From Escherichia phage vB_EcoM_VR26, in the sequence record NC_028957.1: a stretch of DNA of 64,000 nt; one strand, written 5' to 3'. The number at the start of each line of letters is the position of its first letter. Within the stretch, counting starts at the first letter, position 1. A program made the position numbers and the translations under genes. Positions 33,583 through 34,535 of this stretch are shown piece by piece. The notes under the pieces were generated by a model. It saw nothing but the letters and a program-made list of their open reading frames with translations. It ran no database searches and had not been told where the DNA came from.

Positions 33583-34026
33583 TTAAATTTCAAATTCTTT
33601 GCGGAAGTTGGAAGCATAAGATTGAACAGATGCTTTGTTGAATCCAAACTCACGCACAATCATATCAATAACAGCTCTGCGAGCAGCACCATTAGACATA
33701 TTAACAGTTTTGAACATATCATAGCATAAATCTTTGTTGCTCATACCGGAGCGTTTAGGTGCCTTACGCTCAGCTTTTGGTTCAGCTTTAGGAGTAGGTT
33801 TAACTTCTGGTTTAACCTGCCCATCATTCAGACCTTTAAAAATTTTACCTGCCAGAGTTGCCAGTTTAGCAGCTTCACCACGAGTGATACCAAATACTGC
33901 CGGGTTAAATGAAATACCTTCAGCTGTCAGACGTTTGAAGAACATACGCGCTGCGGATTGCGCTTCAGCTTCAGAAGAGTTGTTTAATGCCAGTTTAACG
34001 TACTTAACCAGTTTTGAAGTTTTCAT
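33583..34026 (-). CDS. hypothetical protein, paralog A with shared C-terminal domain (start at MKTSKLVKYVK)
   Basis: C-terminus NGAARRAVIDMIVREFGFNKASVQSYASNFRKEFEI is paralogous to next gene; track start at 34077 lies inside the promoter. Confidence 0.55.
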   Translation of the reverse strand: MKTSKLVKYVKLALNNSSEAEAQSAARMFFKRLTAEGISFNPAVFGITRGEAAKLATLAGKIFKGLNDGQVKPEVKPTPKAEPKAERKAPKRSGMSNKDLCYDMFKTVNMSNGAARRAVIDMIVREFGFNKASVQSYASNFRKEFEI

Positions 34027-34068
34027 TTTATTATCCCGTTTGTTTATTTGGTAACTCAGTATGGGATA

Positions 34069-34097
34069 ATTATACACTATCCCACCTGGAAGTAAAA
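34069..34097 (-). promoter_or_regulatory. T4-type early promoter
   Basis: GTTTTAC -17- TATAAT with inverted repeat gtgggata/tatcccat. Confidence 0.5.
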
Positions 34098-34109
34098 CAC
34101 TTTTCTCAA

Positions 34110-34535
34110 TTATTTTTGAGCTTTGCGGAAGTTGGAAGCATAAGACTGAACAACAGTCTTTTTGATATCATGGGTAGTAACCAGGACATCAATCAGAGCG
34201 CGGCGAGCGGCATTATCATTCATATCAATTTCTGCAAATGCCTGGAAGCAAATGTCACGGGCGTTACCAGATTTGGACTGGATTTTTTCTTCTTTAACTT
34301 CTTCAATTGGGAATTCAATCATTTCAGCTTGGATTAATTCAATGATGGATTCTTTTGACTGTTTGGTGTTTACCTTCAGTTCAGAATTAAGGGACTTGGC
34401 GATGGCAACAATCTGGGTTGAAGTCAGATGGATAAGTGCATCTTCACGAATGCAGATTTCACATACTTCGTCAGCAACCATTTTGTTAGTGATGCGGGTA
34501 ACAGAGAATGCAGAGGTCAGGGTCAGAAAGTTCAT
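34110..34535 (-). CDS. hypothetical protein, paralog B with shared C-terminal domain (141 aa)
   Basis: C-terminus NDNAARRALIDVLVTTHDIKKTVVQSYASNFRKAQK. Confidence 0.55.
   Translation of the reverse strand: MNFLTLTSAFSVTRITNKMVADEVCEICIREDALIHLTSTQIVAIAKSLNSELKVNTKQSKESIIELIQAEMIEFPIEEVKEEKIQSKSGNARDICFQAFAEIDMNDNAARRALIDVLVTTHDIKKTVVQSYASNFRKAQK

Follow-up and report, generated by a model that had tools for sequence, protein, structure and literature searches.

Hyperplastic regions of T4-type phages carry open reading frames (ORFs) flanked by promoter-early stem-loop (PeSL) cassettes (Arbiol et al. 2010, PMC2839356; Comeau et al. 2014, PMC4122927). Two ORFs in a setting of this kind, A (33583–34026) and B (34110–34535), were investigated here. 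They are neighbors on the minus strand of a 64,000-nucleotide stretch of Escherichia phage vB_EcoM_VR26 (sequence record NC_028957.1), called the window below. The window comes from a T4-like coliphage of the genus Gaprivervirus (VR25/SP18 group), and both ORFs lie between the tRNA cluster and e.6, a hyperplastic variable region of small early genes. A megablast search with positions 33000–35400 returned 50 phage records at 94–97% identity, including SP18, VR7 and EAWsc9, and the A and B proteins are each 100% identical to their counterparts in VR25 and P896. Like PeSL-flanked ORFs, these are small and non-essential, each has a conserved sigma-70-like early promoter, and a G-run/C-run stem-loop is present in places. 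We find that A and B are homologous in an autonomous C-terminal domain (C-domain) joined to unrelated N-terminal modules, that the separation of A, B and stand-alone forms is ancient, and that the genes sit in a PeSL-type hyperplastic setting. From sequence and structural models we further propose, with about even confidence, that they represent a small phage-restricted family of early proteins in which the C-domain would be a homeodomain-like helix-turn-helix (HTH), its helix 3 contacting nucleic acid.

Both ORFs were recovered where a preliminary description of the window, made from sequence alone, had placed them, and their start codons (ATG 34026 for A, ATG 34535 for B) match the SP18 and VR25 annotations. 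A encodes 147 aa (A-type; phrog_18416; pI 10.0, net charge +13) and B encodes 141 aa (B-type; phrog_9997; slightly acidic, pI 5.7). The shared domain spans residues 97–145 of A (33592–33738, minus) and 92–140 of B (34116–34262, minus). BLASTP aligned the two proteins at E=2e-17 with 31/73 identities, confined to A 71–143 and B 68–138, and the C-domains are 50% identical in protein sequence. PHROG searches cross-matched through the C-termini, A hitting the family of B at 1.1e-15 and B that of A at 5.7e-16, and both proteins also matched phrog_17275, a 71-residue family. Between the N-terminal halves there is no relationship: hhalign gave a probability of 0.08% with a single aligned column. These results uphold the earlier statement that the pair shares a C-terminal domain only, and the two motifs picked out as common to both ORFs, N(G/D)xAARRA(V/L)ID and VQSYASNFRK, are present and in frame in each. 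Both proteins are labeled hypothetical in all records but one, SP18 and VR25 included; the sole exception is an automated annotation that calls A "H15 domain-containing" and B "rho-N domain-containing". There is no Pfam or NCBIfam model for the family, and its PHROGs carry no assigned function. Pfam, NCBIfam and PHROG function labels gave nothing usable, with weak PBP_like, HrpF and CT847 matches far below cut-offs, and no publication on this family came up in a literature search covering the accessions, the PHROG identifiers and phage proteins of BEN- or homeodomain-like type.

The distribution of the C-domain was determined by an exhaustive hidden Markov model (HMM) search of 1.84 billion representative proteins with a C-domain profile. 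At E ≤0.001 there were 15 hits, 13 of which are true member clusters of 69–198 aa, in which the domain is always C-terminal. IMG/VR contributed 10 loci of the family, and a further word-indexed protein search with the same profile added little (three short proteins only). The family signature extends over ~48 residues and reads C-x3-F ... (I/V)D-x-(L/I)V ... VQSY-x-S-N-(F/Y)-R-K. Homologues were found in other T4-like lineages, in Acinetobacter phages and in Rosemountvirus, the search in other phages having been suggested in the preliminary description. B-type proteins occur at full length in the Acinetobacter T4-like phages 133 and ZZ1 (42–45% identity) and in ~50 Rosemountvirus genomes, 52-kb Salmonella/E. 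coli myoviruses (~30% identity; SE13 gp14 against phrog_9997, 4.7e-58), in both cases with no A-type. In phage 133 the B-type gene (locus L005 2974–3411) is next to the tRNA cluster, as it is in Gaprivervirus, but all of its neighbors are on the other strand; it has a promoter-like sequence of its own. A-type proteins have a narrower range, comprising Gaprivervirus, Morganella phage MP1, Erwinia phage RF1 and metagenomic contigs. A and B are neighbors in Gaprivervirus and in at least five other T4-like lineages, with varying intervening genes: B precedes A in one ENA contig (L003) and two IMG/VR contigs (L016 and L019), RF1 has the order B, HNH-like gene, A, and in MP1 the order is reversed to A, gp119, B. 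Further architectures comprise a divergent A-like type (P0026, P0032) and stand-alone domains.

Stand-alone copies define the domain further. By tblastn, three places per Gaprivervirus genome match the C-domain, and profile searches of all frames of the window and of VR25 gave exactly three copies, with no third copy within the window. The third paralog is VR25 gp167, a 71-aa member of phrog_17275 (locus L008 16907–17122, minus) that lies outside the window, has its own cassette upstream and ends 2 bp before the motA start codon. Its cassette is nearly identical to that of B from the −10 hexamer to the ATG, and the similarity stops at the start codon. P0035 is likewise a stand-alone C-domain, of 69 aa. 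MP1 carries A and B at a locus that, in its relative Providencia phage PSTRCR_127, contains only a 74-aa protein, an internally deleted B in which the first ~17 residues of B are joined straight to the C-domain. The existence of these stand-alone and deleted forms identifies the C-domain as an autonomous core. A weak C-domain profile match (E=0.04 within the genome) was also seen for a VR25 frame, ...IMNNLVAKHDFNKASVH..., at L008 14736–14861 (minus), in the gap between Arn.1 and gp174 and slightly overlapping both, and this frame may be a decayed fourth copy. In VR7 (locus L010 3103–3309), A is truncated to its first 68 aa and retains the N-module only, a natural knockout of its C-domain, with B kept; the next annotated gene downstream is e.4, and the homolog of ORF 33197–33502 and e.6 are missing from this stretch. 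A, at least, is therefore non-essential for plaque formation.

A neighbor-joining tree of 26 C-domains placed all A-type copies in one clade. A second clade held the B-type copies together with the divergent A-like P0026 and P0032 and the B-derived stand-alone P0030, and a third the gp167-type stand-alone copies (VR25 gp167, P0035). Side-by-side A/B architectures recur in divergent T4-like phages at 50–62% identity. Since the types form separate clades and the pairs occur in divergent phages, the split predates those lineages, and by this phylogeny it is ancient and not recent. The proposal in the preliminary description, duplication followed by N-terminal replacement, therefore stands in part: A and B are true paralogs in the C-domain, and there is no sign of a recent local event. 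The original event may have been a duplication with subsequent replacement, or else a mobile C-domain may have become fused independently to different N-modules. Profile searches of all reading frames of the window and VR25 found no donor of the A or the B N-module elsewhere.

Two other accounts of the pair have to be weighed against this history. The similarity might be a nucleotide repeat or a chance match, with one of the ORFs not a real gene; this account is already refuted and we give it practically no weight. All that speaks for it is a near-identity of 31 nt, in which the stretch encoding VQSYASNFRK in A (33597–33627, minus) pairs with 34121–34151 (minus) in B at 30/31 positions. Outside these last 31 nt the shared-domain DNA is only 51% identical (57/111), so that the similarity of A and B lies at the protein level and no DNA repeat is present. 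The pairwise protein and nucleotide alignments called for in the preliminary description thus agree in indicating homology, and the out-of-frame repeat that it had considered was not seen, the similarity being in frame in both genes. In addition, the orthologs of A and B (50–62% identity) conserve length and motifs, and the plus-strand ORFs overlapping A and B matched no family. The literal form of the duplication proposal, a recent tandem duplication in this lineage with one N-terminal half then replaced, is very improbable. The genes are adjacent, each has a similar promoter cassette, and their domains end in the near-identical 31 nt, but the remaining divergence of the C-domains in protein and DNA, their placement in separate old clades and the presence of both types in distant phages all argue against it. 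In the 31-nt stretch A and B share 9/10 codons, compared with ~60% in three other genomes that hold both genes, a marginal excess (p ~0.05) that would indicate a short conversion tract at most. The codons of A in this stretch are closer to B-type codons than to those of its own ortholog in L003, and a short B-to-A conversion tract may have formed in Gaprivervirus. A nucleotide-level constraint on the stretch was considered and rejected, as the orthologs of other phages use a variety of synonymous codons for these ten residues and there is no universal DNA or RNA element.

The architecture of both proteins was modeled with AlphaFold2 using family alignments for A and B, with uncertain domain orientation (predicted template modeling score 0.41–0.54). 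The model of A has a mean predicted local distance difference test score (pLDDT) of 77. Its N-module (aa 1–60; 33847–34026, minus) is predicted to be all-helical (helices 3–15, 19–36 and 49–59) and carries the A-type signature KLxKYIxLALNNSSEGEA...FNP. A Lys/Pro/Ala-rich linker follows (aa 61–96; 33739–33846, minus; VKPEVKPTPKAEPKAERKAPKR), predicted to be disordered, with pLDDT <50 for its Lys/Pro-rich residues 71–91. The C-domain helices of A (97–105, 113–127 and 131–145) are modeled at pLDDT ~90, and their lengths equal those of B. For B, the mean pLDDT is 84.5, and the N-module (aa 1–78; 34302–34535, minus) consists of three short strands (3–6, 12–16 and 27–30) and then helices (31–36, 39–49 and 61–74), with the B-type signature FxxLTSAFSV...QLVxIAKSMNxELKVNxKQSKE. 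Residues 39–74 (34314–34421, minus; QIVAIAKSLNSELKVNTKQSKESIIELI) form a predicted helix-extended loop-helix (HeH) motif. A low-confidence linker (84–89) leads into the C-domain helices 92–100, 108–122 and 126–140.

Neither N-module could be assigned to a known family. The motif KLxKYIxLALNNSSEGEA resembles the DUF2786 motif, and Pfam PF10979 (DUF2786) was not matched, with one of 17 members at E=0.16. A likeness of the A module to T7 Gp2 was rejected (E=0.48); the Gp2 fold is strand-rich and would not fit the all-helical prediction. The B module gave no Pfam Rho_N or SAP match at E up to 10 and no PDB sequence match, and in contrast to HeH, SAP and Rho-N domains its motif is preceded by a three-stranded element.

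The C-domain is predicted by the models to be a three-helix bundle with helix 2-turn-helix 3 geometry. Helical periodicity in the alignments places V134, Y137, A138 and F141 on a core face of helix 3, and Q135, S136, S139, N140, R142 and K143 on a conserved polar face. The best structural and sequence matches were DNA-bound BEN domains and homeodomains, in the register of the recognition helix. A PDB search with a 21-sequence family profile gave only one hit below E=0.01, the ATBF1 homeodomain 2da3_A (E=0.0022, borderline). This alignment covers the family segment "mndkearralidklvetygfkKrvVQSYaSn" and sets Y137 on W48, A138 on F49, S139 on Q50, N140 on N51 and R142 on R53. The domain resembles homeodomains (Engrailed 1du0, Oct-1 POU homeodomain 1pog, ATBF1 2da3) in having three helices of similar lengths, and ATBF1 in particular in that V-Q-S-Y-a-S-N-x-R of the family falls on V45-Q46-x-W48-F49-Q50-N51-x-R53 (E=0.002). 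It differs in having Tyr and Ala in place of Trp48 and Phe49, a much lower net charge, an Asn that varies among distant members, the lack of a clear basic N-terminal arm (unless the basic linker of A-type proteins is one), and no match to Pfam Homeodomain; moreover it is phage-encoded and fused to unrelated N-modules. Relative to BEN domains (Drosophila Bsg25A 4x0g, BEND6 7yul, BANP 7yuk), it covers only about half of the ~100 residues, sequence identity is 4–13%, and Pfam BEN (PF10523) is not matched. An HMM comparison with four homeodomain sequences yielded a negligible ≤5 bits and served as an alignment register check only. A relationship to TAL effectors (TALEs) was considered when profile A3 retrieved 29 TALE chains from the PDB at E down to 3e-17, with no single stretch past threshold. 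The signal was a weak "VVAIASN"-like match summed over many repeats; it disappeared with the broader profile A8 and was rejected.

Our best guess is that the family comprises early nucleic-acid-binding proteins that combine one recognition helix with different partner modules. Host RNA polymerase would transcribe each gene from its own sigma-70-type early promoter right after infection. The C-domain would act as a homeodomain-like HTH that contacts nucleic acid through the invariant polar face of its third helix (Q, S, S, N, R, K), and the N-modules may add affinity, a second contact or site, or a different partner. In A the N-terminal part would be a helical hairpin with a very basic Lys/Pro tail, and in B a strand-plus-HeH/Rho-N-like module. 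The proteins would probably serve as early, non-essential modulators that act on the DNA or transcription of host or phage, and T4 has other small early proteins directed at DNA and RNA polymerase. The presence of own early promoters in all lineages examined fits host takeover or early regulation. Because the helix-3 signature is near-invariant in T4-like A-type and B-type proteins, those paralogs should share one target. The position of gp167 just upstream of motA is a suggestive hint of role only. Nucleic-acid binding appears the most likely reading in view of the exposed conserved residues, which are of DNA-contacting types, the very basic A-type proteins (pI ~10, net charge +8 to +13, concentrated in the N-half and linker) with their H1-like Lys/Pro/Ala linker, and the HeH/Rho-N-like motif of B.

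Several results weigh against a homeodomain-like, nucleic-acid-binding C-domain. Pfam Homeodomain (PF00046), BEN and HTH models matched none of 17 members at E up to 10, an NCBIfam search gave nothing, and Foldseek against the PDB returned no hit below E=1, leaving 2da3_A as the single, borderline homeodomain hit. In the structure comparison with A, scores were lower and HEAT/TOG repeats and designed three-helix proteins were mixed in; such fold scores are expected for any compact three-helix bundle and speak to topology, not membership. The Asn at homeodomain position N51 is replaced by D in Acinetobacter-type members, Y in SE13, S in P0030 and M in P0032, with other signature positions also changing in SE13, P0030 and P0032, and the Arg at R53 is Met in the gp167-type stand-alone copies. 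The C-domain, with a net charge of 0 to +4, is no more than weakly basic; B-type proteins range from neutral to acidic, and in Rosemountvirus the homolog is acidic and has a tail rich in Glu. These features make a serious rival of a protein-protein docking module that would bring the N-modules to a single host target (RNA polymerase, a sigma factor or a nucleoid protein, for example). We regard this as possible but the less likely reading. T4 AsiA is a small helical early protein that acts by docking on a host target, and in VR25 the stand-alone paralog lies among transcription-takeover genes, immediately before motA. The low net charge, the acidic B-type and Rosemountvirus members, the failure of Pfam and NCBIfam to detect an HTH family and the generic nature of the fold matches would all be accommodated by docking. 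Set against it are the nature of the invariant exposed residues (Q, S, S, N, R and K), the absence of a conserved hydrophobic patch on the exposed surface, the recognition-helix register of the best matches, and the strongly basic partner regions of A.

Two further functional readings were considered. A and B might work together, with the C-domain as a homo- or hetero-dimerization interface, which would explain why they are neighbors in Gaprivervirus, L003, RF1, L016 and L019 and, in reversed order, in MP1. This is a minor alternative of low probability, as B-type proteins occur without A-type in Acinetobacter phages and Rosemountvirus, VR7 has lost the C-domain of A and keeps B, and the linkage may be no more than a consequence of common descent of the tRNA-to-e hyperplastic region. 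An extension of the nucleic-acid reading, which we hold to be improbable, is that A, B and the stand-alone copy co-transcribed with motA constitute one phage targeting system. One invariant recognition helix would then guide each protein, bearing a histone-H1-like basic tail, an HeH module or no added module, to a common DNA site or host factor at the early-to-middle switch, and so help to reprogram transcription or the nucleoid.

Each gene has its own early-promoter cassette, in line with the preliminary description, and a predicted sigma-70-type promoter (consensus match) lies directly upstream of each small ORF in every lineage examined. The cassette of A (34027–34100, minus) comprises a −35 hexamer TTTACT, a 16-nt spacer, a −10 hexamer TATAAT, the leader CCATACTGAGTTACC (34051–34064) and a Shine-Dalgarno sequence. 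That of B (34536–34620, minus) comprises TGTACA, a 17-nt spacer, CATAAT, the leader CCATACTGAGTTAC (34568–34581) and the Shine-Dalgarno sequence GGAG. Ahead of the B promoter, a terminator-like stem-loop with a T run (34645–34682, minus; hairpin 34660–34675) would end the upstream transcription unit. Just downstream of A, a further cassette (33503–33582, minus) serves ORF 33197–33502; its G5-loop-C5 stem-loop (33557–33576) overlaps the −35 element and is followed by a −10 hexamer CATAAT, a leader (33524–33537) and a Shine-Dalgarno sequence, and it is a putative PeSL-type terminator/promoter composite. Directly after this hairpin (33545–33576, minus), the sequence TGCTTTA resembles a MotA-box core but stands only 3 nt from the −10 CATAAT, too close for the spacing of T4-type middle promoters. 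In contrast to described PeSLs, there is no stem-loop between B and A in the window sequence, and the most conserved part of these cassettes is the transcribed leader CCATACTGAGTTAC and not the stem-loop.

The leader CCATACTGAGTTAC has 7 matches in the window versus 0.39 expected by chance. It follows the −10 element of a subset of early promoters, all on the minus strand (13591–13604, 14179–14192, 33524–33537, 34051–34064, 34568–34581 and 42795–42808), and in these cassettes the initial transcribed region is conserved more strongly than the −35 element. In VR25 it also occurs ahead of srd, the gp167-motA unit and other early genes. Several cassettes (window 14179–14224 and 13591–13640, minus; VR25 L008 21006–21051) hold the reverse complement of the leader in the −35/−10 spacer (CAGTATGGGA ... 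TCCCATACTG), which places the −10 hexamer in the loop of a potential hairpin. The leader is common to Gaprivervirus, Gualtarvirus (MP1, PSTRCR_127) and the ENA contig L003, and the family members of RF1-type contigs, Acinetobacter phages and Rosemountvirus lack it in their upstream sequence. A role as the operator of the family was rejected because of this absence.

Gene content around the cassettes varies between close relatives, as in PeSL regions. A 98-aa gene (VR25 gp149/VR7 gp146, phrog_27242) lies between A and B in VR25 and VR7 and is missing from the window and SP18. This gene-sized insertion or deletion is bounded by a repeated cassette, a 50-bp segment (window 34024–34073) that matches both flanking cassettes in VR25 (locus L009 3614–4033), as expected for PeSL-mediated shuffling. 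The gain or loss of gp149 with cassette breakpoints and the truncation of A with deletion of downstream genes in VR7 are further points of likeness to PeSL regions.

Between the tRNA side and B, a 219-aa ORF (34680–35339, minus; phrog_5032) has a GIY-YIG-like domain, T5orf172/MUG113 (Pfam 4e-8). It is probably a mobile gene resembling those of homing endonucleases. VR7 has this ORF (98% identity over 34807–35500) and EAWsc9 has a gene at the equivalent position, but it is missing from SP18 and VR25. The 3' end of the ORF is chimeric, with similarity to VR7 ending at 34807 and 34650–34718 matching EAWsc9/SP18-type sequence. The window is therefore a mosaic of its relatives.

For most early genes of T4-like hyperplastic regions, no function is known. 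For the locus studied here, the setting of PeSL-type cassettes, hyperplastic region and cassette-bounded gain and loss is known biology, of which gp149 gives a clean example, and the proteins were catalogued but uncharacterized. New are the union of three PHROGs (18416, 9997 and 17275) into one domain family, its distribution and modular partners, and a probable homeodomain-like fold in which helix 3 (VQSYxSNxRK) is the candidate functional surface. Besides being autonomous, the domain recombines with various N-modules. The pair represents ordinary modular early phage genes, probably of HTH type, and no new kind of system, and the family is real, old and rare. If the targeting system outlined above were true, it would represent an unrecognized class of homeodomain-like regulators in T4-like and Rosemountvirus phages.

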